Assembly (NCBI GenBank): GCA_963666285.1
Contig: OY762711.1
DNA: 64,000 bases
Reading direction: 5' to 3' (one strand)
DNA from: Sedimentisphaerales bacterium
GTDB lineage: Bacteria > Planctomycetota > Phycisphaerae > Sedimentisphaerales > SM23-30
The position numbers were made by a program, and so were the translations under genes. This document shows, piece after piece, positions 49,964-64,000 of the stretch. Every line of letters starts with the position of its first letter. Position 1 is the first letter of the stretch. A model generated the notes under the pieces. That model was not told where the DNA came from, searched no databases, and saw only the letters and a list, made by a program, of their open reading frames with translations.

Positions 49964-51328
49964 TTATTCTTCCGGTTTTTCCGGTAATTTACTAAGCCTT
50001 CTTTCCCGGTTATCATTTTCGAGAACTTTCTGGAACCCGTCCTTTGACATATATTCAGAATGGCCATCCATAAAACCAACAACATAATACGTATTACAAT
50101 TACTTTCAAATCGTTCATAGACACAAATCATTTCAGATCTGGCTTTGTCATTCAGGTCTTTTCCCCTGAAAATATAGCCGGTACCAATATTTTTTAAGGG
50201 GCTGATCAAGCCTTTGGCAGGATAATCAGCTGTGGTAATCAATTCTTCCAAAGACTCAGGCATTTTTCCTTTATGATCATTCATGTGGATACAACAAGCA
50301 GTAGCAATCCCTTTAACATTCAGCATGCTTATTTGAATATCAGCCTGGTGTTTGGCACTACTATAACAATCCATCATAAAAGGAGCGAGGATTTCCCTGA
50401 TCTGAATATTGTTTATGGAGCCTACCAGCCTGCTCCCGGAGCATTCAGGTTTAATGTTCTTTAGCATAGAGTTGATATCAGGATATTTTTCCTTGATCCA
50501 TGGCTCTTCTTTTAACGCGTAGTTTTGTAATAATTCAACCAAAACAATAGCCCGCTGAGCAGCTTCAACACTTTGAGATTGTGCCGTATAGGAAAGATTC
50601 AGTTTCTTGTTCAGATTCAGGCCAAGAGCTGCCCACTGAACCGACCTAGTAAAATCAGCCCCGGTAGCAATATCGTCAGCTTCCCGAAAAGGATAAAAAG
50701 TTTCCTCGATAACACGTTTAAGACTGACAGAAGGTGTAAATAATAACCTGACACCATATTCCTTAACAGTCTCTTCTGCATTTGACACGTCCTGCCGAAC
50801 ACCATCCGTTTTACCTTTGAGTCTCTCAATCGTATCAGATCTTCCAATAAGCAGGGTATCATCAATATCAACCATAGTATCAAGACTAATAAATGGAACA
50901 TTCTTCAATTCGGTAAGATTCAGCATCTGGACAAGTCCTTTTAATGAAGGACAGTCTTTGCCTGGTTCATGAGGAACAACCAGGTAAAATGCAGGTAAAT
51001 CATGCATACTCATAACAAAATTAACATTCTTAATCCCGTCATTTTTGAACTGGGCGAGATAGCCATCGACAACAATCTTAAACGAGTTGATTTTAGCAAT
51101 AGCCTGATCTGCATCTGCCTGATCAAGATACTCTGCTATATAGTACATGAATTCATCAGTTACAGCCTGGGTATCTACACTATTAAGGTCTACACTTAGT
51201 ATTGCTGCCGTTTCATCTTCGAGCCATGGTTCTAATTGCTCATAGCCTGTTGCAGCAGCTAATGAGTTGCAAAGAAAAACTGAAATCATGGCCAAAATTA
51301 CGACATATGCGTTAAATGTTTTATACAT
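49964..51328 (-). CDS. Secreted protein with C-terminal DUF1559/H-X9-DG-like (pilin-related) segment
   Basis: Signal peptide; SMLNVKGIATACCIHMNDHKGKMP and VVGFMDGHSE resemble the planctomycete DUF1559 N- and C-motifs. Confidence 0.6.
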   Translation of the reverse strand: MYKTFNAYVVILAMISVFLCNSLAAATGYEQLEPWLEDETAAILSVDLNSVDTQAVTDEFMYYIAEYLDQADADQAIAKINSFKIVVDGYLAQFKNDGIKNVNFVMSMHDLPAFYLVVPHEPGKDCPSLKGLVQMLNLTELKNVPFISLDTMVDIDDTLLIGRSDTIERLKGKTDGVRQDVSNAEETVKEYGVRLLFTPSVSLKRVIEETFYPFREADDIATGADFTRSVQWAALGLNLNKKLNLSYTAQSQSVEAAQRAIVLVELLQNYALKEEPWIKEKYPDINSMLKNIKPECSGSRLVGSINNIQIREILAPFMMDCYSSAKHQADIQISMLNVKGIATACCIHMNDHKGKMPESLEELITTADYPAKGLISPLKNIGTGYIFRGKDLNDKARSEMICVYERFESNCNTYYVVGFMDGHSEYMSKDGFQKVLENDNRERRLSKLPEKPEE

Positions 51329-51351
51329 TTCTATTACTCCTTATAAAAAGT

Positions 51352-52770
51352 CTATTTGTTCAGTTTAATGCGATAGCCAATGAAATTTGCATTGTCATCC
51401 GGGTCCTGAACATCCAGAATTGCCGTATCTCCTTCCAGACGATAGATGAATTCTTCACCAGTGAATGCATTTTCAGGTAACGGTACATTATTTATATCAG
51501 AAAGCCGTTTTGGCAACTGGTCATATTCGGCAACATACATACGTATTGCTTCGACACATTGCATAGCCTGATCGCGAACCTGGAATCTTGCCACAAGAAG
51601 TTTGCATCTATTCAAAGCGGGAAGAAATTCATAGAATATATTTGGGACAGTCATGTAATGACGTTTCCGGTCTAATTCTTTGCTATATTTTTTCATTCTA
51701 TCGCCTATCTGATGATAAGGCACAAAAAGATATTTGAACATATCATCTCGCAAAGGAAGGTATTGCTTCCATTGAGCCAGCATAACTACCTGGGCAGCAG
51801 GCATCATCTCTACCCTGCGAGAGTCGTAGCCATTTGCCAGAAGATAATTTTTGCCCGACACATATCCTGCGGCAACTATCGCAGCTAAAGGGATGTCATC
51901 ATCTACCATCTGCAGCATTTCGCTGAACTTTTTGTTAGCACGCTCAACGGAGAGTATATCAGTTTCCAGATCATCAATACCATCCTTTACCCACAAGCTC
52001 AATTCATATTCAAATGCCTGATGCATATCAATAAATGGTTGAGGCATTACTTTCAGAGCCCAATAGAGATTCGGACTGTCAGGTTGAGATGCGATGTCTT
52101 CGATTATCCTGTAATTTATTGTCGATATTGCAATAGCGACAAGGTCCTGAATGAGAGTTTTGCCCTTGCTTATATCTTCTGCCAGAGCAAAATTATAGCT
52201 GATCATCTCCAAAGCACCATCATAATCGCCGTCAGCTACTTTCACCCGAGCCTCTAAAGCAATAAGTTTAGCAATATTCTTGTAATCAGACAAGCTCGGC
52301 AGCAACATATTTATGCCGTCTTCTATCGGATCCTGCCAGTCGCAGTCGGTTCGATATGCAGCATGTTTTAAGAAGCTAACAGATGAAACGTTGAAAAACT
52401 TCCTGGCATGATCAAGCTGTTTATTCTTAAATTCATAAAATGGCAACTGGACCAATTCCATACAGTCTAATTCACCCTCCTTAAAATTATGATATTCATC
52501 CAGATCGGCTGGAATCATAGCGTTTAACTTATTCCAGTCAACTGCGGCATTGCCGGGAATAAGGTCGATAATAGGAGGCAACAGCCTGTACTGCAGTGCC
52601 GGGACAGGCTCAGAAGCACCGGAAATGGAAATTTCTACATACTTATCAGGTTCTTTTTCACTATCAGTTTTGTCGGTGGCAATAATTGCCTGTCCTGACA
52701 CAGTACTGCCGGCATACATTGCCAAAACCAGCCATAGTAATATTTGTTTGATAATTTTATTCATCATCAT
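51352..52770 (-). CDS. Secreted helical hypothetical protein (ECF-operon associated)
   Basis: Signal peptide; PALQYRLLP..GNAA, CDWQ, EAIRMY..LP..L..VPLP.NAFTGEEFIY; start at one of the MMM codons. Confidence 0.65.
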   Translation of the reverse strand: MMMNKIIKQILLWLVLAMYAGSTVSGQAIIATDKTDSEKEPDKYVEISISGASEPVPALQYRLLPPIIDLIPGNAAVDWNKLNAMIPADLDEYHNFKEGELDCMELVQLPFYEFKNKQLDHARKFFNVSSVSFLKHAAYRTDCDWQDPIEDGINMLLPSLSDYKNIAKLIALEARVKVADGDYDGALEMISYNFALAEDISKGKTLIQDLVAIAISTINYRIIEDIASQPDSPNLYWALKVMPQPFIDMHQAFEYELSLWVKDGIDDLETDILSVERANKKFSEMLQMVDDDIPLAAIVAAGYVSGKNYLLANGYDSRRVEMMPAAQVVMLAQWKQYLPLRDDMFKYLFVPYHQIGDRMKKYSKELDRKRHYMTVPNIFYEFLPALNRCKLLVARFQVRDQAMQCVEAIRMYVAEYDQLPKRLSDINNVPLPENAFTGEEFIYRLEGDTAILDVQDPDDNANFIGYRIKLNK

Positions 52771-52820
52771 TAATCCCTCATAATTTTCACATAAACAGAC
52801 CAAAAGTCAGTTTGTGTAAT

Positions 52821-53255
52821 TTAACTGTTTAGCATATCTTTAAGAGAATACACCTTGCCATTTTTACCAGTAGATTTCGGTAAAACCTCCAAGCCATGGT
52901 CAAATACCTGTCTGCGCAGCAACAGGTACGAGTTTTCATCCAGCTCATTTACTGGACCTGAAACAACATTAGTTTCAAGGTTTGTCTTGTCAAATTCAGA
53001 ATCTGCATTATCCTGTACAACAAGCTTAATATTACCGAATGACATTTCTGGTACAGTCTGAGACCGGTTATTTGCCATATTCACAAAAGCTAGCACCATA
53101 ACCAAAAGTATCATACAGCCGTTGGAAACCTGCCAGATCCTGGTATTTTTGCGACCCTGCCTGAAGCCAGCTTCATAAGCCACCGCTGCGGGATCGAGCC
53201 CCGGTTCAACTGGAGCAAGGTTCATAAGTTTATTTTCAAATTCATTTATATTCAT
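52821..53255 (-). CDS. Probable membrane anti-sigma factor
   Basis: Directly downstream of ECF sigma; FE..L..L.P N-terminus, AYEAG, single TM. Confidence 0.6.
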   Translation of the reverse strand: MNINEFENKLMNLAPVEPGLDPAAVAYEAGFRQGRKNTRIWQVSNGCMILLVMVLAFVNMANNRSQTVPEMSFGNIKLVVQDNADSEFDKTNLETNVVSGPVNELDENSYLLLRRQVFDHGLEVLPKSTGKNGKVYSLKDMLNS

Positions 53256-53261
53256 GGCAAT

Positions 53262-53744
53262 TCACTCCAATCTATCTTTAAGAGCTTTAATAGCCCTGTT
53301 ATATCTATTGTGCAGGGTTGAGGTTGCTATGCCGGTTATTTCTGAAATTTGCTCAAAGCCCATCTGGCCCCAAAGCCTAAGGGTAACAACTTCGCGAAGT
53401 TCGGTATCAAGTTCAAATAAAGCTTTTTGGACTATTTCGGCGTCCAGCTGATTATCGGTATCCGGCTGAAACCATAATTTACCGTCAACTTTTAGCTTTT
53501 GGACCGCTTTATCTCTGACCTGCTTTTTTCGCAGACGACTGATACAATCGTTTCTAACCGTACGATACAGCCATGCCTTAATATTAACCGGCATATTTTT
53601 CTGGCTGATCAGCTTTACAAACGCTTCCTGAACAACATCTTCGGCATAATTTCCGAGCCATTGCCGGGCGTACAGACACAACCCGGCTGAATATTCGGTA
53701 AAATATTGCTGAATATGTGATGTCCTGGAGGGCAGTCTGTCCAT
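53262..53744 (-). CDS. ECF RNA polymerase sigma factor
   Basis: AEDVVQEAF, AWLYRTVRN (region 2); REVVTLRLW..MGFEQISE (region 4). Confidence 0.9.
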   Translation of the reverse strand: MDRLPSRTSHIQQYFTEYSAGLCLYARQWLGNYAEDVVQEAFVKLISQKNMPVNIKAWLYRTVRNDCISRLRKKQVRDKAVQKLKVDGKLWFQPDTDNQLDAEIVQKALFELDTELREVVTLRLWGQMGFEQISEITGIATSTLHNRYNRAIKALKDRLE

Positions 53745-53890
53745 AAAGTCTTTCTTGCTATAGCATTACGCAACAGGTACATTTTTATTATTATACCTGC
53801 TACATATATAAGACGCATGAAGAATGGTTTTTTCCAATAGAAAATGAGAAAAACAAAAATAATACTATTTAAAATTATGGTCAATAAATA

Positions 53891-55813
53891 TTATTTCAAA
53901 AATCTAGTATTACCCGAGCGGCGTGTGACACCGATTTTGTCCATATAATCAAGTATCGGCAAGGCATATTTGCGAGTTGTATCGAGCAGATATTTCATCT
54001 TAACGCTTTCGAGCCTACCCTGCCCTTCCCCGTTGACATGATCGATAATTCTGCGTTTGGCCTCTTCAATTGCTTCACTATGGAAATAAACCTTCCGTTC
54101 AACCTCAATAATTATTTTCTGCTCGGTGAGAATAGCAATGGTTTTATCATATTCACTTTGAGATGCATTAACCATGCTGCGGATGTCATCCGGATTTGGC
54201 GGAGAGAACAGGTTGTCTTTATAGACAGCTTCAACTTTATCCAGTAAAGCCTGCTGGGCCGGGTCATACTGTTCCTGGTGAGACGTCAGGGCAAACAGTT
54301 GATTTTTCAATAGCAGTTTACCTTCACTAATAGCAAGTTTTACAACTGCATCAAAAAGCGTTTTCTCCAGATCGCTCTGCTGCAGCAGAAGATCACGCTC
54401 CATGCCCAGTCGATCAGGCATTTGTTTGTGAAAGACCTCTAGTTTGCCATAAATATACTCAAGAACATCGTTATACACCTGAGCATGAAGATATTGTTCG
54501 TTAGCAACCTGGATAACAGTATTGCTTTCGACAAACCTGGCCAGAATATTCTTTACAGAATCGGGTTCCAGCTTGGTCCGCAATGCGATCTGCCTGATTG
54601 ACAAAACAGACCATGGATCATCTTTCAGGCAATATTCGATAAAAGACCTATTCTCGCATACTGCATTTGCCCAGCATTTTATTGCATCGATTGAAGATAT
54701 CCTGCTGCGTTTTAGTTTTTTCGGCAGTGGTTCTATGACAGTACCACCACCAACGGTCTGGACCGGACCGGTAGAACGCAAGATAAACCTGTCATTGGGA
54801 CCGGCAACTATTGGCTGATCAGCTAATAGCTGTACAAATACTTCCTGACCGGCAAGAGCGACAGTGTCTTCTAAAAGATATATCTTGGCGGTTACCTCAC
54901 TGGTACCTGTGTGAAACTTCATACGTTTGCCATGTTTGACAACAAGACCATCCAAATTAAGAATCTTTAGAGAACATAAAAACCACTCAGAAGGTTCAAA
55001 ATATTCACCTTTTGTAAGTACATTACCACGCTCGATATCGTTGAAATCCAGCTGCGGCAGGTTTAAGGCGGCACACTGGCCGGAACGGACAGTATCATCA
55101 TCACGACCATAGACCTGGATAGCCTTGATACGGCTTTTTGTGCCTTTTGGCAAAAGAGTAACCTCATCGCCAACTCTGGCAGAACCACTTACAGGGATGC
55201 CGCTAATAACATTACCAAAGCCTTTAACCGAGAAGAATTTTTCAACCGGCTGGCGAAATACGCCTTCTGTGCTTTTGGGCTCAATACTCTTTATCAGGGA
55301 TTTGAGAGAATCATAAAAGAAATCAAAGCCATCGCCCGTGATATTTGACATCGGGCAGATATCTGCACCCGCCAGAAAGGTATCTTTGAGATAATCTTTG
55401 AGTTCGGATATCACCTGCTCAACTCTTTCCGGAGAGACAATATCGGTTTTGGTAAGAGCTACCATGCCATGTTTGACACCAAGCAGGGTAAGAATATTGA
55501 GATGTTCCCGCGTCTGGGGCATTATACTATCATCAGCAGCAACAACAAAGATAACACCATCAATACCGGAAGCTCCGGCTACCATGGTCTTAATAAAATT
55601 TTCATGGCCGGGAACATCCACTATACCAACTTCAAGATCGCCTAGCCGACAAGGGGCAAAGCCAAGCTCTATGCTCATACCGCGTTCTTTTTCCTGCTTG
55701 AGCCGGTCGGTTTCGCAACCGGTAAGAAGCCTGATAAGTGCAGTTTTGCCGTGGTCAATATGACCGGCAGTACCTAGCGTTATATTTATTTGAGATGCCT
55801 GTTTATCGTTCAT
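53891..55813 (-). CDS. selB: Selenocysteine-specific elongation factor SelB
   Basis: GTAGHIDHGKT, EKERGMSIELGF, DVPGHENF, TKTD; C-terminal winged helices ending TTRKYALPILDYMD..GVTRR. Confidence 0.97.
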   Translation of the reverse strand: MNDKQASQINITLGTAGHIDHGKTALIRLLTGCETDRLKQEKERGMSIELGFAPCRLGDLEVGIVDVPGHENFIKTMVAGASGIDGVIFVVAADDSIMPQTREHLNILTLLGVKHGMVALTKTDIVSPERVEQVISELKDYLKDTFLAGADICPMSNITGDGFDFFYDSLKSLIKSIEPKSTEGVFRQPVEKFFSVKGFGNVISGIPVSGSARVGDEVTLLPKGTKSRIKAIQVYGRDDDTVRSGQCAALNLPQLDFNDIERGNVLTKGEYFEPSEWFLCSLKILNLDGLVVKHGKRMKFHTGTSEVTAKIYLLEDTVALAGQEVFVQLLADQPIVAGPNDRFILRSTGPVQTVGGGTVIEPLPKKLKRSRISSIDAIKCWANAVCENRSFIEYCLKDDPWSVLSIRQIALRTKLEPDSVKNILARFVESNTVIQVANEQYLHAQVYNDVLEYIYGKLEVFHKQMPDRLGMERDLLLQQSDLEKTLFDAVVKLAISEGKLLLKNQLFALTSHQEQYDPAQQALLDKVEAVYKDNLFSPPNPDDIRSMVNASQSEYDKTIAILTEQKIIIEVERKVYFHSEAIEEAKRRIIDHVNGEGQGRLESVKMKYLLDTTRKYALPILDYMDKIGVTRRSGNTRFLK

Positions 55814-55823
55814 TCTTATTGTT

Positions 55824-57224
55824 TTAACCCAAAATTTCAGTTAAAGCTTCAACTACTATCTTTGCATCCCCCTCCAGCAAAGACCTGGGATCCAGCAGTA
55901 TTTTATCTTCCTGGATACGGGTAAATATCGGAGTACTATAATGCCTGAGTCTGTTTGCAATTATAACACTACTAATCTTATTACTAAATATTGTCACTAA
56001 CCTGGTTTTGAGGTTCTGAGTCGGAAGAGAGCCGCTACCTGTTTGAGAAAATCCATCGACGCTCTCAATTTCAGCATCTAACTTTGCCTTACGCAGTTTT
56101 GATGCAATTTTTGCCGCTTCGCTTTTGATAGAATCGTACGACCGCAGCATCATCCGCAAGGTTGGAACCTGCTGTAGTGCCTTTTCTTCATTCATAAACA
56201 ACCTCAAAGTTGCTTCCAGGGCAGCAAGAGTCATTTTATCTACTCTAACTATGCGGGCAAACTGGTTCTTTTTGACCTTTTTAACCAGATCAGCCCTGCC
56301 GAGAATAATCCCGGCCTGGGAAGCACCGATAAGCTTGTCACCACTGGAACAGAGAATATCGGCACCATCGGCAATAGATTCGGCAAGAGTTGGCTCTTTG
56401 GCAAAACCATATTTTGAGAAATCAACCAGCGAACCTGCACCAACATCATCAAAAGCAATAAGGCCATTGGCATGAGCCAGATCAACAATCGGTTTAAGCG
56501 GTACTTCACTGCTGAATCCCTGGATTTTGTAATTGCTCGGATGAACTCGCAGAATAGCGGCGGTTTCTTCTGAAATAGCATTTTCATAATCACGCAAATG
56601 GGTTTTATTGGTAGTACCAACTTCGACCAGTTTTGCCCCGCTGAACGCCATTACATCCGGCAATCTGAAAGAACCGCCAATTTCGACAAGCTGACCGCGT
56701 GAAACTATAACCTCTTTGCCCTCGGCGATGGTATTTAATACCAGTGCAGTTGCTGCGGCATTGTTATTTACAATCGTAGCCGCTTCGGCACCGGTAAGAA
56801 TAGAAAACATCTTTTCTATATGGTTGTCGCGACTACTGCGTTTTCCATCTTCGATACCAAGCTGCAGCAGTGAATAGCCGCTGAGTTCGCTTTTTATCTG
56901 ATCTACAGCCGCGTCAGGCAATACCGCCCTGCCAAGCCCGGTATGAAGTACTATCCCGGCAGCATTAATAACCTTGCGATAGAAAGGACTTACCAGTGAA
57001 CCAAGTTCAGATTGAATATCGCCTACAACAGCATCTCTAATATCAAGCACATCCTTTGAGCAGCTGCCGGCTAATATCTCCTTGCGTTTTTCTTCAATAA
57101 CAGAACGACAAACCTTCGTTAATATTGCCTGAGAAAACGATTCCTTGTAAGAATCCGGCAATAGCTGACAGACAGAATCCACCGAAGGTATCTGCCTTAA
57201 CATTTCCTGCTGAGAAGCATCCAT
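55824..57224 (-). CDS. selA: L-seryl-tRNA(Sec) selenium transferase
   Basis: VINAAGIVLHTGLGRA, NNNAAA, SRGQLVEIGGSFR, EVGTTNKTH, VHPSNY, SGDKLIG (PLP Lys). Confidence 0.97.
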   Translation of the reverse strand: MDASQQEMLRQIPSVDSVCQLLPDSYKESFSQAILTKVCRSVIEEKRKEILAGSCSKDVLDIRDAVVGDIQSELGSLVSPFYRKVINAAGIVLHTGLGRAVLPDAAVDQIKSELSGYSLLQLGIEDGKRSSRDNHIEKMFSILTGAEAATIVNNNAAATALVLNTIAEGKEVIVSRGQLVEIGGSFRLPDVMAFSGAKLVEVGTTNKTHLRDYENAISEETAAILRVHPSNYKIQGFSSEVPLKPIVDLAHANGLIAFDDVGAGSLVDFSKYGFAKEPTLAESIADGADILCSSGDKLIGASQAGIILGRADLVKKVKKNQFARIVRVDKMTLAALEATLRLFMNEEKALQQVPTLRMMLRSYDSIKSEAAKIASKLRKAKLDAEIESVDGFSQTGSGSLPTQNLKTRLVTIFSNKISSVIIANRLRHYSTPIFTRIQEDKILLDPRSLLEGDAKIVVEALTEILG

Positions 57225-57248
57225 ATAAGTATCTTTCTAAAAAACGGG

Positions 57249-57785
57249 TTATTTGATTTCAACCCATTCTTCTTTCTTTTCAACTTTGAACGGGCCTAGA
57301 TCAGCATCTAAAACAACTTTTACTTTGCCGCTGAAATTATTAGGAGCTCGCCACGAACTCCGGCATGTGCCGCCTCAGCCAAAGGTAAAATCGCCAGAAC
57401 CGAGCAGTTTTTCCTGTTCATCATAAATCTTATATGATGGAGCATTCTGCATACTACCATTTCTTTCTGCTGCAGGTAAATAGGTTTCGCCGGCATTTCC
57501 CTCTAAAACAGCCCCCAGGTATAAAGTTCGACCGCTGACGGTAACATCTGCCCTGGCAACCAGCGGCTCACCAGGTTTTGAATCATTTTTCCAAGGGGAA
57601 GTTGATATTGAAAGCTCCCATATATTGCCCTGATCATCTTTTACAGATAGCCCAGAGTCTGAGATAACTTTAGCTGACGGATTCATAAACATAAAAAAGA
57701 GGAAAAGACCAATAATTACAAAACCAACAATAAAAATGCCTTTAGGCCCGGATTTATTCATTTCTTCAAAACTTTTTTCTGTCAT
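57249..57785 (-). CDS. Candidate membrane-anchored selenoprotein (178 aa, Sec137 in FG-U-GGTC)
   Basis: ATG 57785 after GGAGAG; TM GIFIVGFVIIGLFLFFMFM; TGA 57375-57377 followed by 41 open codons GGTCRSSWRAPNNFSGKVKVVLDADLGPFKVEKKEEWVEIK to TAA 57249-57251; SECIS-like hairpin; heads selAB. Confidence 0.85.
57343..57361 (-). promoter_or_regulatory. SECIS-like hairpin 1
   Basis: GGAGUUCG-UGG-CGAGCUCC, 8-bp stem starting 13 nt after the UGA. Confidence 0.8.
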
Positions 57786-58133
57786 AGAACTCTCCAGTGT
57801 TAATTTGACGCAAAACAATACTAAATATCAAAACGACAAGGCTATACTATAACTAATAAATGCACTAATTTGTATCAAAAACCTTGAAAAATGATTTCAT
57901 CTGTTATAAATCTGCTTATATTCTCATAAGAAAAGTAGTAATATAAATTTAATTAGTCAAACCACACAACCAAACTACCATAACATCCTATATTAACAAA
58001 GGTTACAGTTTAACAACCTTTTAAGTGCCTTTGTTTTATATACCGAAATATCTTGCAATTATTTTGGGATTATGGCATGATATATGAAGTTATTGTCTCG
58101 GCATATTAGAAATTGCTTTTTACAGGAAATTGA

Positions 58134-58271
58134 ATGAACAGCTATCAATATATACGATTAATGCACTCCGGAAAACAGGAGTATGGCTGAGTTGTTTCCT
58201 GTCGATACTCGTGTCGAGTGTCAGAAAGCAATTCTATCTTTAAATGTTTCATACAGCTTCATTTTATTTAA
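58134..58271 (+). CDS. Candidate Sec-containing leader peptide (45 aa, MNSYQYIRLMHSGKQEYG-U-VVSCRYSCRVSESNSIFKCFIQLHFI); not in ORF track
   Basis: AGGA upstream of ATG 58134 (alternative ATG 58161); TGA 58188-58190; TAA 58269-58271; motif homologous to the 57249-57785 protein; SECIS-like hairpin at the same spacing. Confidence 0.65.
58204..58222 (+). promoter_or_regulatory. SECIS-like hairpin 2
   Basis: GAUACUCG-UGU-CGAGUGUC, 8-bp stem starting 13 nt after UGA 58188-58190; same UCG-UGN-CGA apex as hairpin 1. Confidence 0.72.
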
Positions 58272-58325
58272 TAGAATCGTTAATGACACCAATAATATTG
58301 GTCAAAACCAAATAAAGAGCATATC

Positions 58326-58361
58326 GGCAGACTGGAATTTATCGTCTGCCTTTTCTATTTT
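58326..58361 (+). terminator. Terminator-like hairpin in the leader of the ABC-selD-selC operon
   Basis: GGCAGAC-11 nt-GTCTGCC followed by TTTTCTATTTT, ending about 30 nt before the binding-protein start. Confidence 0.55.
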
Positions 58362-58389
58362 AAATGGGAACATTGCCGAAAGGGAAAAT

Positions 58390-59520
58390 ATGAAAAATCT
58401 TCTACTTGCACTAATCGTTATAACAGCAGCGATAACCGGCTGCGAAAAAAAGGAAACCACATCCAGCGATAATACCACAAATCAAACACCATCAAAAGCA
58501 GTAACATTAAAAGTTGGGCATGTCGGCCACGACCACCACCTGGCATTGTATATGGCATGTGATTACGCTGATGAACTAAGTATAAATGGCGTCAGACTGG
58601 AGAAAGTTGAGGACATGAAATATTATACACTCTATAAAAACGAGACCAAACTTGCAGACGTGGAAATTGTAAAAGTTGGCGGCGGAGCCAAGATGCCTAC
58701 CGCACTGGCACAGGATGTCATAGATATTGGATTTGGCGGAGTTGCACCGGTTATTGCAGCAGTTGATAAAAACGCACCTGTAAAATTAATCAGCCCACTA
58801 CACTCCAAGGGTGATATGTTTGTGATGAAAACCGACTCCGAGGTAAACAATTGGGACGATTTTATTAAAATGGCAAAAGAAACCAAAACACCTATCAGAA
58901 TAGGATACAAAAGTCCATCAGCAGTCGCCAAGTTAATCTTTGAAGATGCTCTAAGTAATGCAGGGATCTCTTTTGGACAGGACCCTGCCCAGACCGATAT
59001 TAATGTGTTAATGGTTAATACCAAAGGCGGCGGCAAACTGAATGTTGCCCTGGAAAGCAATATTATTGATGGTTATGCAGGAAATAACCCATTCCCTGCT
59101 ATTGCCGTTAATAAGAAAATGGGAAAAGTAATTGCCGACCTGGAAGACCTTCCGCCTGGAAACTTCAAGAACCATCCATGCTGCTGCATTGCAGCTAACG
59201 ATAAGGCCCTGGCGGAAAAAACTGAAGCTATCGAGGCAATGCTGACACTATTCAAAAAGGCAACCGATTTAATCAACAACGACCTGAATAAATCAGTTGC
59301 AGCTGCGACGCACTGGATTGGTACATCTGAAGAAGTCGAAAAGATGAGTATTCCGACCAGCGGATACAGTATGCAGGTCACTGAGGATTGGCAGGCGACC
59401 ATGGATAAATGGTTCGAGGCTATGAAGGCTCTTGACACCTATCAAGGTGAACTAAAGGACATACCTGCTAAACAGGCCTGTGATAAAGTATACGATATGT
59501 CAATTTTGAAAAAGATATAA
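58390..59520 (+). CDS. ABC transporter substrate-binding lipoprotein (NitT/TauT family) with GHDHH and HPCCC motifs
   Basis: Lipobox AAITGC from ATG 58390 after AGGGA; LKVGHVGHDHHLAL; IDIGFGGVAP; HPCCCI. Confidence 0.88.
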   Translation: MKNLLLALIVITAAITGCEKKETTSSDNTTNQTPSKAVTLKVGHVGHDHHLALYMACDYADELSINGVRLEKVEDMKYYTLYKNETKLADVEIVKVGGGAKMPTALAQDVIDIGFGGVAPVIAAVDKNAPVKLISPLHSKGDMFVMKTDSEVNNWDDFIKMAKETKTPIRIGYKSPSAVAKLIFEDALSNAGISFGQDPAQTDINVLMVNTKGGGKLNVALESNIIDGYAGNNPFPAIAVNKKMGKVIADLEDLPPGNFKNHPCCCIAANDKALAEKTEAIEAMLTLFKKATDLINNDLNKSVAAATHWIGTSEEVEKMSIPTSGYSMQVTEDWQATMDKWFEAMKALDTYQGELKDIPAKQACDKVYDMSILKKI

Positions 59521-59533
59521 ACAGCTATAAATA

Positions 59534-60373
59534 ATGAACAATCCAAAGATAAGAAAATCAAATATCATCGGCTGGCTGATTATGCCAATAGTGCTGCTGG
59601 GAATATGGCAATTACTAGCGGTTAAACTTAACCAGCCATGGCTGATACCTGCACCGGTAAAGATAATAGAACAGTTGACCCACCCACTGCGAATTCATTT
59701 TTCGTCCGGGTCACTTTTTAGCAATACAATTATCAGCCTTCTGAGAGTATTTATCGGTTTTGCGCTAGCAGCTATTATCGGAGTTTCAGCAGGATTACTG
59801 CTGGGTTCGATCCGGCCGCTTAGACAATGGTTTGAACCAACAATAGAGATTATCAGGCCGTTATGCCCAATTGCCTGGCTGCCGTTTGCGATTGCGGTAT
59901 TCAAACTGAACACTCTGCCTAATCTTTTTGGTATCAGGTTTACTCATACCATACTGGACCAGGTACAGCTGGGTATGATATTTGTAATTTTTATCGGCGG
60001 ATTCTTTCCGATCTTCACTAACACTATGGATGGAGTAATAGGAGTGAGAAAGAATTTTGTCAGGCTGGCCCAGACACTTGGCGCAACCAGAGTCCAGGTA
60101 TTCCTGCAAATATATCTACCTTCTGCTATGCCTCAAATTCTTACCGGATTGCGACAGGGACTCGGCTTGTGCTGGTTTGTTATTATTGCAGCCGAAATGA
60201 TGGTTGGCTCTGATACAGGCATAGGCTATTTACTGATGTATGCCGCAGATAACTCGGCAATGGATATCGTGATATCATGCATGATTATCATAGGTGTGAT
60301 CGGCGCTGTAATGAGTACTGCTATGCGTATACTGATACACAAAAAGGTTGCATGGAAAGGAAAAGAGTTTTAA
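59534..60373 (+). CDS. ABC transporter permease (NitT/TauT, SsuC-like)
   Basis: SLLRVFIGF, RPLCPIAWLP, AQTLGA (EAA region), IAAEMM..GIGYL. Confidence 0.92.
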   Translation: MNNPKIRKSNIIGWLIMPIVLLGIWQLLAVKLNQPWLIPAPVKIIEQLTHPLRIHFSSGSLFSNTIISLLRVFIGFALAAIIGVSAGLLLGSIRPLRQWFEPTIEIIRPLCPIAWLPFAIAVFKLNTLPNLFGIRFTHTILDQVQLGMIFVIFIGGFFPIFTNTMDGVIGVRKNFVRLAQTLGATRVQVFLQIYLPSAMPQILTGLRQGLGLCWFVIIAAEMMVGSDTGIGYLLMYAADNSAMDIVISCMIIIGVIGAVMSTAMRILIHKKVAWKGKEF

Positions 60374-61149
60374 TGCAAACAGAACTACAACATCCTAATA
60401 CATGCACAAGTGTTATACCTCTAATCAGTTTTACAGGTATCAGTAAAGCATTCACCTCCGATTCCGGCCGAATAGTACAGGCTTTGACAGATGTATCATT
60501 TTCGGTGCGACCTGGTGAATTTATTACAATTGTTGGTGCAACCGGTTCCGGTAAAACCACTTTACTGAACCTGATAGCCCGTCTGGAACATTCAGATGCA
60601 GGAATAATAGAATACAACAACTCACTGGATATAAAAAATGAAATATCTTATGTATTCCAGCATTATACCCTGCTGCCCTGGTTAAACATTCAGAAAAACA
60701 TCTCTTTGGGACTGAAGCTGCGTAAAATACCTCAAAAACAACGAATTAAAACCGCATGCAGGTTAATGAAAGATACCGGGCTAAAAGGTTTTGAGCGGGC
60801 GTACCCACATGAGCTTTCCGGTGGAATGAGACAGCGTGCCGCAATTGCCCAGGCCCTGGCAACAGAACCAAAACTACTGCTTATGGACGAACCATTCGGG
60901 TCACTTGATGATGGCACACGAAGCGACTTACAGCAGATGTTAATAAATATCCACCAGCAAAGCAAAACTACTATTCTATTTGTTACTCATAACATTGACG
61001 AAGCAATATTGCTGGCTGACAGGATAATTGTTTTAAGCAAATCGCCTGGAAATATATTAGAAGATATTGAAATTAACCTGGCAAAACCAAGAAACAGAAA
61101 CAATAACGATTTTACTAAACTTTTTTTGCAGATACGGAATTTATTATGA
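60373..61149 (+). CDS. ABC transporter ATP-binding protein (NitT/TauT, SsuB-like)
   Basis: GATGSGKTT, VFQHYTLLPW, YPHELSGGMRQR, LLMDEPF, FVTHNIDEA; TAATG coupling to the permease. Confidence 0.95.
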   Translation: MQTELQHPNTCTSVIPLISFTGISKAFTSDSGRIVQALTDVSFSVRPGEFITIVGATGSGKTTLLNLIARLEHSDAGIIEYNNSLDIKNEISYVFQHYTLLPWLNIQKNISLGLKLRKIPQKQRIKTACRLMKDTGLKGFERAYPHELSGGMRQRAAIAQALATEPKLLLMDEPFGSLDDGTRSDLQQMLINIHQQSKTTILFVTHNIDEAILLADRIIVLSKSPGNILEDIEINLAKPRNRNNNDFTKLFLQIRNLL

Positions 61150-62777
61150 CAATTAATAAAGAAAGACGTAAACGCGTAATGCAGCGTTCTATCAAACTGG
61201 GACATTGTGTATGCGACCCTAAACAACCCTGTCCTTGTGAGATATTCAAGGAAAAAAACATATGCTTATGTGCAGGTGAGAGACTGGAGGAACCAACTGG
61301 AGAAGTTCGCTTAACCCAAATGGTGGAAAAGGCAGGATGCGGCTCCAAAATTGACCAGGCTTTCCTCAAGGAAGTGCTTGGCGATTTGAAAATGCCGGAA
61401 GACACTAACGTTCTAGTTGGCGTACCTGCCGGTGATGATGCCGGGGTATACGATATGGGCAATGGAACCTGCCTGGTTCAAACAGTTGATGTATTTACCC
61501 CAACTGTTGATGATCCATATATGTTCGGCCAGATTGCAGCAGCAAATTCTGTTAGTGATGTATATGCTATGGGCGGCATACCCAAAACCGCCCTTTCGAT
61601 AATCGGCTTTCCGGTACGCAAAGTCCCTGATAGAGTAATGAAAGAGATCATCCGAGGTGGAATTGATAAAATGGCAGAAGCCGGTGTGTCTATTATTGGC
61701 GGACATAGTATCAACGACCCGGAAATAAAAGCAGGCTATGCAGTAACTGGAACAATAGATAAAGAAAAAGTAATTACTAATGATGGCATAAAGGTTGACG
61801 ATGTATTCATCCTTACTAAAGCATTAGGGACAGGAATAATCTCATTTGCATCTCAAATAGGACGAGCGTCTAAAAGTGCAATGGAAGCTGCCGCAAAGTC
61901 AATGGCAACCCTGAATAAAACAGCATGCGAGTTAATGGTGAAATACAATGCCCATGCCGCCAGTGATGTTACCGGCTTTAGCTTGATAGGCCATTTATCA
62001 GAAATGACAAGACGTAGCGGGGTAGATGTCGAGATAACCTGGGATAAGCTGCCCTGGCTGCCGGAGGCACTTGATTATGCCGCTCAAGGAATATATCCCG
62101 GGGCAATCGAACGAAACAAGGAATCATGTGGTCATACCATTATTGTCGATGATAATGTGAGCGAAGCAATGGCTGATATCTGTTTTGACGCTCAGACTTC
62201 CGGCGGCATGCTAATTGCAGCAGCACCAGATAAAGCTGAAAAACTATTAGGTGAACTGAAAGCATCTGGACTGGAATATGCTGCCATCATTGGTAGGACC
62301 ATTTCAAGAGGCTCAGGAAAAATTAACATTGTAACGGACCGGACAAAATCATTTACAGCTTCTAATGCCGCTCAAAACATACAGGAAACTTCAGAACCTG
62401 ACCCGGAGCCATGTTGCGGGACAGGAGCAGCATCTGCAATAAAAGCACAAACAGCTAATGCAGAAAGCTGTTGTTGCGGTCCAGAACCGGATGGGCAAGA
62501 TAACAATAATGAACCAATCAAAGCTATCGAAACCAGTTTTTCCAGCTTTATGAGTAAGGTAAACAGACCCGGCGGACTTGACGCATTCACCAAGCAAGCG
62601 GTGAACCTGGCATTGTCTATCCATTCGAAATGTAAACCTTGTCTCAAAACACATATTGCAAAAGCACGTAAAATGGGCTATACTGAATCTGAGATTGACG
62701 AAGCAGCATGGATGGCAATCGCTTTTGGCGGTTCACCGGCCATGATGTTTTATAAAGAAGTGAAAGCAGAGGTATAA
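61146..62777 (+). CDS. selD: Selenide, water dikinase (Cys form) fused to an N-terminal CxC/CPC/CxC domain and a C-terminal AhpD/CMD domain
   Basis: RLTQ..AGCGSK (Cys65, TGC 61338-61340), DDAGV, TVDVF, NSVSDVYAMGG, GGHS, DVTGFSLIGH, DAQTSGGML; ATGA overlap with the ATPase gene. Confidence 0.95.
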   Translation: MTINKERRKRVMQRSIKLGHCVCDPKQPCPCEIFKEKNICLCAGERLEEPTGEVRLTQMVEKAGCGSKIDQAFLKEVLGDLKMPEDTNVLVGVPAGDDAGVYDMGNGTCLVQTVDVFTPTVDDPYMFGQIAAANSVSDVYAMGGIPKTALSIIGFPVRKVPDRVMKEIIRGGIDKMAEAGVSIIGGHSINDPEIKAGYAVTGTIDKEKVITNDGIKVDDVFILTKALGTGIISFASQIGRASKSAMEAAAKSMATLNKTACELMVKYNAHAASDVTGFSLIGHLSEMTRRSGVDVEITWDKLPWLPEALDYAAQGIYPGAIERNKESCGHTIIVDDNVSEAMADICFDAQTSGGMLIAAAPDKAEKLLGELKASGLEYAAIIGRTISRGSGKINIVTDRTKSFTASNAAQNIQETSEPDPEPCCGTGAASAIKAQTANAESCCCGPEPDGQDNNNEPIKAIETSFSSFMSKVNRPGGLDAFTKQAVNLALSIHSKCKPCLKTHIAKARKMGYTESEIDEAAWMAIAFGGSPAMMFYKEVKAEV

Positions 62778-62793
62778 CATCTCCTGCTTAGCT

Positions 62794-62890
62794 GGAGGTG
62801 ACAGGTAACTGGTGTTGCTCCTGGTCTTCAAAACCAGTGTGGGGCGGTAAGCCCGTCCCGGGTGGGTTCGATTCCCATTCGCCTCCGCCA
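62794..62890 (+). tRNA. selC: tRNA-Sec (anticodon UCA)
   Basis: 8-bp acceptor GGAGGTGA/TCGCCTCC + GCCA; 6-bp D stem with TGGT loop; CTGGT-CTTCAAA-ACCAG; long variable arm GGGGCGG/CCGTCCC; GTGGG-TTCGATT-CCCAT. Confidence 0.97.
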
Positions 62891-62914
62891 TTTTAGACTC
62901 TCCTACCTGAATAT

Positions 62915-62935
62915 TAGCACATTTAATAGCACATT
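62915..62935. repeat. Tandem 9-bp direct repeat (possible integrase arm-type sites)
   Basis: TAGCACATT at 62915-62923 and 62927-62935, between the tRNA 3' end and the integrase-like ORF. Confidence 0.45.
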
Positions 62936-63014
62936 ACTCTTTTATCCTACCTACCATTCTGATATAATATTTCTATCTGAATTTTAAATTATTCATCATT
63001 TATCAGGCTTAATA

Positions 63015-64000
63015 ATGGCTAAAAAAACTGGCAAAAAAGCAAACTATATCATCTTTGGAAACCAAGAAGTTAAAACTGTTTTCGATGGAAAAGAAATTGG
63101 AGTAAGCCTTGATAGAACCACTCAATCTCACTATACAATGCTTCCGCAAAAATCAGGAAGAACCAAACGAAAATGGTTAGGAAAGCATACAGGTAAAGCC
63201 GTTGCAAGTTTCTGGGCTTTAGTAGAAGAGCTCAATAACAAACAAACACCTACAACAACCATAATCGCTCAACAAGAAGACATATCCCCCCTGTATGAAC
63301 CAACGGATAAAATGTCTATGGATGAAGTTGTCAGGTCCAATCAAATTAAGTTAAGAAAGACTGGCAAAGTAATACTTACAACAAAGGAGTCAGAGCATAT
63401 ACAATGGCTATTCAAGGAACTCCAAAATCCCAAGGAATTGGCTCGTAAAACTGGCATCGAAGAGTTTACAGAGTTTGGAAAACTATTAGCCAAAGATACC
63501 AACATACCTCTTAAAGACCTTCTTAAAAACTATCTTAATAAAAAGAAAACCGTTTCAAAAACAACCAGACAACAAAGCAAAACATTTTTTAATAATTTCA
63601 TTAAAGCTATTGACTGCAAGTATGTCGATGAAATCACCCTGAAAGACATACACAACTATGAAGACTATATATACTCAAAAGGATTAGCCGCGAAAAGCAT
63701 CATTAACCAAATATGCACTATATCTACTATCATAAATTACAACACAGGAAGATATCACTGCCCTCATCTATTACAAGTGCATAGTTGGCTCCAGAAAGGA
63801 ATAGACAAACCTACGGAAGATAAACTTTACAATCCAAAATTGATTTCAGTTGTTGATTTTATGGCTTTATACGAAGTGGCTCCATTCAAATGGAAGCTGT
63901 TTCTATTACTTGGTCTGAATTGTGCAATGTATCCAATTGACATTTCCAACTTTCAACTAAAACACCTCAATATCGAAGATGGAACGGTTGCATTTAGACG
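63015..64000 (+). CDS. Tyrosine recombinase/integrase-like protein (partial, runs off window end; not in ORF track)
   Basis: Open from ATG 63015 to the end (328 codons); SAM-like core VDEITLKDIHNYEDYI..KGLAAKSIINQI; box-I-like FLLLGLNCAMYPIDISNF..LNIEDG; starts 124 nt after the tRNA. Confidence 0.75.
   Translation, partial: MAKKTGKKANYIIFGNQEVKTVFDGKEIGVSLDRTTQSHYTMLPQKSGRTKRKWLGKHTGKAVASFWALVEELNNKQTPTTTIIAQQEDISPLYEPTDKMSMDEVVRSNQIKLRKTGKVILTTKESEHIQWLFKELQNPKELARKTGIEEFTEFGKLLAKDTNIPLKDLLKNYLNKKKTVSKTTRQQSKTFFNNFIKAIDCKYVDEITLKDIHNYEDYIYSKGLAAKSIINQICTISTIINYNTGRYHCPHLLQVHSWLQKGIDKPTEDKLYNPKLISVVDFMALYEVAPFKWKLFLLLGLNCAMYPIDISNFQLKHLNIEDGTVAFR

Follow-up and report, generated by a model that had tools for sequence, protein, structure and literature searches.

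Background

Little is understood of how bacteria adjust the uptake of selenium and the synthesis of selenophosphate to their needs, and to our knowledge the only characterised cis-element that performs such adjustment is the selenocysteine insertion sequence (SECIS)-like operator of Escherichia coli selAB. Here we analyse a 64,000-nt stretch of contig OY762711.1 (assembly GCA_963666285.1, Sedimentisphaerales bacterium), hereafter the window, in which two divergent units contain the genes for selenocysteine (Sec) decoding. At the head of the rightward unit, which encodes an ATP-binding cassette (ABC) transporter, SelD and tRNA-Sec, lies a short open reading frame (ORF) with an in-frame UGA and a candidate SECIS hairpin, followed by a predicted intrinsic terminator. 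Judging from the sequence and its relatives, positions 58134-58361 probably constitute a ribosome- and SelB-coupled transcription attenuator of the ABC-selD-selC operon that reads Sec-decoding capacity.

The closest selenium-specific cis-element is that of E. coli selAB. There the 5' untranslated region carries a SECIS-like element without UGA decoding and without a leader ORF; only 3 nt separate the hairpin from the Shine-Dalgarno sequence of selA, and its effect is to repress translation (PMC13449736). Both systems place a SECIS-type hairpin in the leader of a Sec-pathway operon, with SelB.GTP.Sec-tRNA as the likely ligand and negative feedback as the expected outcome. In the window, unlike in the E. 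coli operator, the hairpin follows a UGA within an ORF and ends 167 nt before the ATG of the ABC substrate-binding protein gene, with terminator and antiterminator in between; the right-hand element is not a UGA-less hairpin abutting the Shine-Dalgarno sequence of the regulated gene.

The closest precedent for a UGA/SECIS acting on transcription is fdhF(Sec) of Treponema primitia, for which selenium-dependent transcriptional elongation past the UGA/SECIS is reported, an effect inside the selenoprotein's own gene in which low selenium truncates the transcript (PMC3892789). In both cases selenium would act on transcription past a UGA/SECIS via coupling of translation to transcription. The T. primitia system has no dedicated terminator or antiterminator, whereas here a discrete switch would stand before other genes and work with the opposite sign.

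In mechanism the closest counterparts, by analogy, would be the leader-peptide attenuators of amino-acid operons (trpL, hisL and pheL type), which are ribosome-mediated (summarised in PMC3892789). Shared features are a short translated leader, a terminator directly before the first structural gene, an exclusive antiterminator, and a sensed quantity that is the supply of charged tRNA for the pathway's product. Unlike in those systems, the sensing codon in the window is a UGA that is read only with SelB and a SECIS hairpin, and that hairpin is at once one of the alternative helices and a predicted protein-binding site. The leader also goes back to a gene for a selenoprotein of 180-230 aa, and in about half of the genomes that gene itself is still the leader; the operon serves uptake and activation (ABC transporter, SelD, tRNA-Sec), not classical biosynthesis. 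No description of a Sec attenuator was found in the open-access full-text library searched, and the words "attenuat", "feedback" and "autoregulat" do not occur in two recent reviews. New in this analysis are the terminator and the complementarity that links its 5' half with the spacer after the UGA and with the SECIS 5' arm.

Results and discussion

Three mutually exclusive helices in the leader of the ABC-selD-selC operon

The first-pass annotation had proposed that both divergent units begin with ORFs that carry an in-frame UGA followed by a SECIS hairpin. Translation with TGA=U confirmed the in-frame UGA on both sides (LLGSGDFTFG-U-GGTCRSSWRAP on the left, LMHSGKQEYG-U-VVSCRYSCRVS on the right), and in each ORF a 13-nt spacer after the UGA leads to a hairpin of 8 bp whose 3-nt loop lies in a UCG-UGN-CGA apex. 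Pairs 2-5 differ between left and right and all still pair, as had been stated (G-C/A-U, A-U/U.G, G-C/A-U, U.G/C-G). Both ORFs thus have the form of a bacterial SECIS, an in-frame UGA with a stem-loop about 11-13 nt downstream. The left loop reads UGG and the right one UGU; the G at loop position 2 is invariant across 28 aligned leaders. Both hairpins are present in the minimum free energy (MFE) folds (z -2.07 left, -3.09 right), and the pattern TGA-N18-TCGTGKCGA has two matches in the window against 0.01 expected, a number reached by none of 100 shuffles. We regard both as candidate SECIS elements, for which Sec insertion and SelB binding are predicted.

Behind the right-hand ORF, a predicted intrinsic terminator starts 54 nt after the leader stop, and its U-tract ends 29 nt before the binding-protein ATG. 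A consensus terminator scan missed it, with its loop of 11 nt against a scan maximum of 8; our own finder allowed loops up to 14 nt. Three strands around this terminator and the SECIS, together with the SECIS 3' arm (strand B), define three mutually exclusive helices (Table 1): A:B is the SECIS, A:C the antiterminator and C:D the terminator. Strands A and C pair in 12 bp around a 2-nt bulge. When the nascent RNA of the window was folded from the UGA to the terminator 5' arm, 11.8 A:C pairs were expected and the SECIS had a probability of 0.02. Constrained folds gave -49.2 kcal/mol for SECIS plus terminator and -45.6 kcal/mol for the antiterminator, so that the two states are close in energy. 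Random genomic 23-mers match the pairing of strand C with strand A in 1.3-1.5% of trials.

The stretch therefore has the parts of an attenuator: a short ORF with a regulatory codon lies upstream on the operon strand and has equivalents in relatives, a predicted intrinsic terminator lies between this leader and the first structural gene, and an alternative helix excluding the terminator shares nucleotides with the terminator 5' arm on one side and with the spacer and SECIS arm on the other. A Shine-Dalgarno-like stretch with GGA is located 7 nt before the mini-ORF ATG. The dependence of the A:C helix on ribosome position we infer from geometry only.

The helices are retained in relatives

In the relatives, each last copy, before the operon genes, of the selenoprotein family to which the right-hand ORF belongs (see below) is followed by a strong stem-loop and a U-tract. 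At each of the 13 loci that were studied first, no part of the leader pairs better with the terminator 5' region than the spacer directly behind the UGA; the A:C helix appears in the MFE structure of 12 of them, with 8-16 expected A:C pairs and a SECIS probability near 0. As a control, seven paralogues of the family elsewhere that also have a terminator were inspected, and none of the seven has the complementarity (best site elsewhere, z -1.2 to 0).

We then compared 28 aligned leaders, after exclusion of L013 and L148:1931-2175 from 30 candidates as paralogues that are not at an operon head. The strand C consensus is the reverse complement of 19 nt that run from the end of the spacer through the SECIS 5' arm into the loop, bar one G.U. 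In register, 82.5% of the A:C cells are paired, as against 34-46% with the partner slid by 1-3 columns. Double compensatory changes in A:C were detected in G010 (C-G to U-A), G023 (C-G to A-U) and G000, and in G010 and G023 the changes on the coding side are synonymous. The SECIS and terminator helices show strong covariation: 96.6% of the cells are paired and nine pairs have double changes, a score as high being reached by 0 of 500 shuffles.

We collected the region divergent from selA for all 69 selA-positive genomes among 301 sampled from the same order; a locus search with SelA itself had returned mostly distant phyla and one close relative. A recurring layout was found, in which selB and selA are transcribed in one direction and, in the other, one or more family genes are followed by several genes and then selD. 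The last family copy before the operon genes is truncated in many genomes; in one genus (g44), for instance, six species have a 62-codon ORF with a UGA context similar to that in the window. A module was counted when the divergent strand had a family UGA-hairpin, with a terminator within 60 nt of the stop and the best complement of the terminator 5' region at UGA+0..15 with z at most -2. By this definition it is present in 46 of the 69 genomes and ambiguous in two. The right-hand UGA and SECIS ORF is therefore kept in relatives; decay there, which the first-pass annotation had named as a refuting result, was not seen. The last gene is full length in 24 of the 46 modules and truncated in 22, and the truncated ones are spread over 14 genera. 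Between the terminator stem and the start of the next ORF of 80 codons or more lie 15-134 nt, and the gap is within 60 nt for 30 of the 44 modules measured, which leaves little room for a separate promoter.

A covariance model of the module found it in other families of the class as well, with matches in 31 of 151 genomes sampled from the class, including 12 of 16 in another family. Of six such loci inspected, SelD directly follows the module in four, and terminator and complementarity are present by our scan in three.

The genes between the module and selD are of two sets. The first is the same ABC transporter as in the window (G035, G162, G212, G167 and G063). The second, which many relatives have, comprises a DUF3034 protein, an S-adenosylmethionine (SAM) methyltransferase, three proteins resembling 2-hydroxyglutaryl-CoA dehydratase D (HGD-D) and a BcrAD/BadFG-type ATPase, followed by selD (for example L147:1340-7294 (+) and L022:1046-6110 (-)), and may represent an undescribed selenium-related pathway.

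The leader is a truncated copy of a selenoprotein gene

The two ORFs of the window had been described as homologous. They are, although both belong to a larger family of which the right-hand ORF is a truncated copy. Scanning the whole genome (6.35 Mb, both strands) for UGA-N13-hairpin sites, with pairing demanded at 7 or more of 8 positions, we found seven, of which six are genes of one selenoprotein family and the seventh is the right-hand 45-codon ORF. The six family copies are at 57249-57785 (-) in the window and, on G000:C1, near 498566, 1429006, 4259769, 4457575 and 4460979.

The family motif around Sec is EYG-U-GG-x-C-x-x-SWR-x-P, in which the Ser-Trp-Arg codons form the hairpin apex. 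Over about 20 residues of the UGA-hairpin segment, the right-hand ORF is closer to the family consensus than the left-hand gene is; VV stands in place of GG, C in place of W and S in place of P, and nothing is retained outside these aligned residues, but the UGA and the fully paired (8/8) hairpin within them remain intact. The left-hand ORF has the full domain, including the Gly, Cys, Ser, Arg and Pro that are invariant around Sec (alignment A1), and the right-hand ORF lacks it. On this evidence the right-hand ORF is, by sequence, a truncated family copy and neither an independent invention nor a working protein.

Among five mini-ORFs of genus g44, the variable sites fall 10/11/14 on codon positions 1/2/3, which is no coding signature, and long runs are invariant at all three codon positions. 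This points to leader copies that are constrained as RNA and not as peptide. A function of the mini-ORF peptide was considered and dropped, since the variable sites show no codon periodicity.

In truncated leaders of four lineages (g44, G040, G029 and G162; L026, L027, L143 and L144-L148), an ATG is found four codons before the UGA, giving M-E-Y-G-U where the full-length genes have Phe or Leu at the position of the Met. Translation of these leaders might start only 12 nt before the Sec codon.

Proposed mechanism

In the proposed mechanism, strand A would pair either with the 3' arm of its hairpin (SECIS) or with strand C (antiterminator), and strand C would otherwise pair with strand D to form the terminator. 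With ample SelB.GTP.Sec-tRNA, a ribosome would be held on the UGA or pass it while the SECIS is occupied; strand A would then be unavailable as RNA polymerase makes strand C, the terminator would form and the operon would be attenuated. When Sec-tRNA is scarce, release factor would clear the ribosome at the UGA, and the free spacer would serve as a toehold for strand C, so that formation of the antiterminator lets transcription run on into the genes for uptake, selD and selC. The 13-nt spacer that captures the terminator arm would lie inside a ribosome with the UGA in its A site, and SelB binding should hold the SECIS 5' arm, which makes up the rest of strand A, in the hairpin.

In the other 45 modules, the 5' edge of strand C could also be covered by a ribosome that has gone beyond the UGA and stands at the stop codon, which is what happens in trp-type attenuators. 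In the window such a contribution from a ribosome at the stop codon is unlikely, given the 54 nt between stop and terminator. The leader itself would have descended from the first gene of the operon, which encodes a membrane-anchored selenoprotein, and in about half of the relatives the full-length selenoprotein gene would still act as the leader.

Several observations weigh against this mechanism or limit its support. We infer the direction of regulation, high capacity being off. The window antiterminator is the weakest of the set (-15.4 kcal/mol, z -2.5) and taken by itself has p of about 0.014. The distance from leader stop to terminator is 54 nt in the window and 20-40 nt in the other 45 modules, so that in this genome a ribosome at the leader stop cannot touch strand C. 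A consensus promoter scan upstream of the leader located none. Because the A:C helix is conserved in most columns, its covariation is modest, and 14 of 500 shuffles scored as high. We chose the census criteria post hoc, after the first cases had been seen, and the census genomes are related, so that the counts overstate independence; there is no family site within 3.4-7.4 kb of selA in 8 of the 69 genomes, and contig ends or short stretches allow no verdict in 13 more. The module scans demanded a TGA, so that leaders lacking one could be reached only by a hairpin scan free of this demand, and two of the hairpins which that scan returned without a correctly spaced TGA (L187 and L189) have a family-type stem. 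Finally, two truncated leaders (G228 and G225) have only GTG or TTG as a start and no in-frame ATG.

Alternative explanations

The last two points bear on an explanation in which attenuation depends on SelB only: SelB, with or without Sec-tRNA, would bind the hairpin as a protein-binding anti-antiterminator of the PyrR or TRAP type and favour the terminator, and translation of the mini-ORF and its UGA would be leftovers. The three-helix architecture applies equally well to this explanation, which also agrees with the repression of selAB by E. coli SelB through a SECIS-like hairpin without UGA decoding (PMC13449736), with the hairpins of the same apex and without UGA that stand 55-162 nt upstream of selA in seven relatives, and with the two leaders that have no in-frame ATG. 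The presence of the UGA in the 46 modules tests nothing here, since the scan demanded it. In the TGA-free hairpin scan, however, a correctly spaced TGA was found at 96 of 112 hairpins, and the other 16 are mostly unrelated sequences or lie upstream of selA, apart from the two with a family-type stem. All truncated leaders examined keep an in-frame start codon (ATG in most) and a frame that is open through the UGA, and the terminator arm is captured by the 13-nt spacer, exactly what a ribosome at the UGA covers. We therefore regard control by SelB alone as unlikely.

The tandem family copies that are common at the operon head, with a truncated copy often following a full-length one, and the lack of coding constraint on the peptide would also fit a mini-ORF that is the decaying pseudogene fragment of a tandem selenoprotein-gene duplication, its terminator belonging to the duplicated gene and the complementarity being a functionless old inverted copy. 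Such a relic would hardly account for truncated copies in 14 genera, all of which have kept UGA, terminator and complementarity and a hairpin with no more than one of its 8 pairs lost, across SelA divergences down to about 56-68% amino-acid identity. Nor would it account for synonymous spacer changes matched by complementary changes about 160 nt away (G010 and G023) or for a next gene that is usually too near the terminator to have its own promoter, and of the explanations considered here we give this one the least credence. Hardly better placed is the idea that the long-range helix serves the selenoprotein mRNA, masking or presenting the SECIS or protecting the 3' end and so tuning Sec insertion or stability. 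Half of the modules are indeed in full-length selenoprotein genes, but the helix uses the terminator 5' arm and is incompatible with a terminated 3' end, and the module persists without the protein in the 22 truncated leaders; this makes a role in the selenoprotein mRNA a slim prospect. A ribosome- and SelB-coupled attenuator thus remains the reading we prefer.

The leftward unit and selA leaders

The first-pass annotation had proposed UGA/SECIS control for both operons. The proposal is supported for the right-hand operon, with its leader, terminator and antiterminator, and not for the left-hand one, where the ORF is a full-length selenoprotein gene located 24 nt upstream of selA and no terminator/antiterminator module was found before selA. 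A search for an attenuator at the left-hand gene likewise found no terminator with complementarity before selA. A weak 5-bp hairpin with a run of six U (57225-57262 (-)) overlaps the stop of the left-hand selenoprotein gene, 24 nt before the selA ATG, and has no complementarity to the UGA spacer of that gene.

The expected conservation of the element upstream of sel operons was similarly borne out on one side only: in contrast to the right-hand module with its 46 genomes, a family UGA-hairpin upstream of selA was found in this genome alone among the 67 with a readable selA upstream region. In seven of these 67, we detected a SECIS-like 8-bp hairpin with a CG-UGY-CG apex and no UGA, 55-162 nt upstream of selA (G035, G160, G198, G270, G053, G186 and G126; on the selA strand of L149, L154, L182, L196, L200, L024 and L160). 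These recall the E. coli selAB operator. The left-hand SECIS lies 137 nt from the selA ATG, a position equivalent to that of the UGA-less hairpins, and could serve the same purpose as the selAB operator, which we mention as a lead and not as a finding.

A large selenoprotein family without annotation

The left-hand protein (178 aa) consists of one transmembrane (TM) helix and a beta-sandwich (AlphaFold2 mean predicted local distance difference test (pLDDT) score 87.1). Foldseek searches against PDB gave weak matches to immunoglobulin-like or macroglobulin-like beta-sandwiches (best E 7e-3), and neither Pfam nor NCBIfam has a model that matches the selenoprotein or the mini-ORF. Compared with 41 related genomes, the protein has matches in 13, and each match has exactly one in-frame TGA. 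A profile search of a protein library retrieved 1931 cluster representatives (50% identity clusters), most of which end at the residue before U, with a minority of homologues having other residues there; the database entries of the family are "hypothetical" and end at the UGA. The family domain (about 140 aa) either stands by itself after a TM helix or closes proteins of 380-1000 aa.

Selenium locus and gene neighbourhood

The gene context given in the first-pass annotation was confirmed: selB, selA and the selenoprotein gene run leftwards, and binding protein, permease, ATPase, SelD and tRNA-Sec rightwards (Table 1). All four Sec-decoding genes (selA, selB, selC and selD) are within the window. 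In an Rfam scan of positions 50000-64000 with E up to 10, tRNA-Sec was the sole match. Contigs from two DNA sequencing runs were compared with the window; one is nearly identical to it and may be its source, and the other has the same sequence in pieces.

Table 1 Features of the selenium locus in the 64,000-nt window
Feature	Position	Strand	Basis or details
selB (selenocysteine-specific elongation factor)	53891..55813	-	Pfam GTP_EFTU, Beta-barrel_SelB, SelB-wing_2, SelB-wing_3
selA	55824..57224	-	Pfam SelA, E 4.6e-141
Left-hand full-length selenoprotein, 178 aa	57249..57785	-	UGA 57377-57375; candidate SECIS hairpin 57361-57343
Leader mini-ORF, 45 codons, truncated family member	58134..58271	+	Translation with TGA=U
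In-frame UGA, candidate Sec codon (leader codon 19)	58188..58190	+	
Right-hand candidate SECIS hairpin	58204..58222	+	8/8 pairs, UGU loop, -8.5 kcal/mol alone
Antiterminator strand A	58199..58210	+	Last 5 nt of spacer and first 7 nt of SECIS 5' arm
Antiterminator strand C	58317..58330	+	5' flank and first 5 nt of terminator stem
Predicted intrinsic terminator	58326..58361	+	7-bp stem 58326-58332/58344-58350, 11-nt loop, U-rich tract 58351-58361
ABC substrate-binding lipoprotein, NMT1_2/SsuA type	58390..59520	+	Pfam/NCBIfam; weak match to SaoX
ABC permease	59534..60373	+	Pfam
ABC ATPase, start codon uncertain	60277..61149	+	Pfam
SelD, Cys type	61146..62777	+	N-terminal Cys-rich extension; C-terminal AhpD/CMD domain
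tRNA-Sec (selC)	62794..62890	+	ARAGORN; Rfam RF01852, 76 bits

SelD is a three-part fusion: its Cys-type core is preceded by a Cys-rich N-terminal stretch of about 50 aa and followed by an AhpD/CMD-like domain, and the same architecture (about 540 aa) is found in most relatives. The program-made ORF list draws the frame of the binding protein back to an ATG at 58183, within the leader, and automatic annotation may thus swallow leader and terminator; the true start is likely at 58390, where the product is lipoprotein-like and a purine-rich stretch lies ahead.

The selenium locus (53891-63998) may have been acquired horizontally. Its SelA is 67-68% identical to members of another family and 53-57% identical within its own family, none of three other genomes of the window's genus has selA, and an integrase-like gene (63015 onward) follows tRNA-Sec.

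Conclusions

With less assurance than for the attenuator in the window, we lean towards a broader proposal, that Sec has its own attenuator with the SECIS as anti-antiterminator. In it, a ribosome at the UGA and SelB would jointly decide whether the 13-nt spacer captures the terminator arm, and the switch would be seen evolving from a full-length selenoprotein gene to a leader of 45-62 codons in at least 14 genera. A few point mutations would put the switch to the test, since the limits of all three helices are specified at single-nucleotide resolution.

If true, a leader-peptide switch would for the first time be known for Sec, the 21st amino acid, with a coding SECIS reused as a regulatory helix, and selenoprotein engineering would gain a compact and portable means of sensing Sec-decoding capacity. 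A by-product of the analysis is a large unannotated selenoprotein family, nearly all members of which are cut at the UGA by gene callers. The descent of the leader from a selenoprotein gene suggests a general route by which UGA/SECIS leader ORFs before selenium genes may arise in other phyla.

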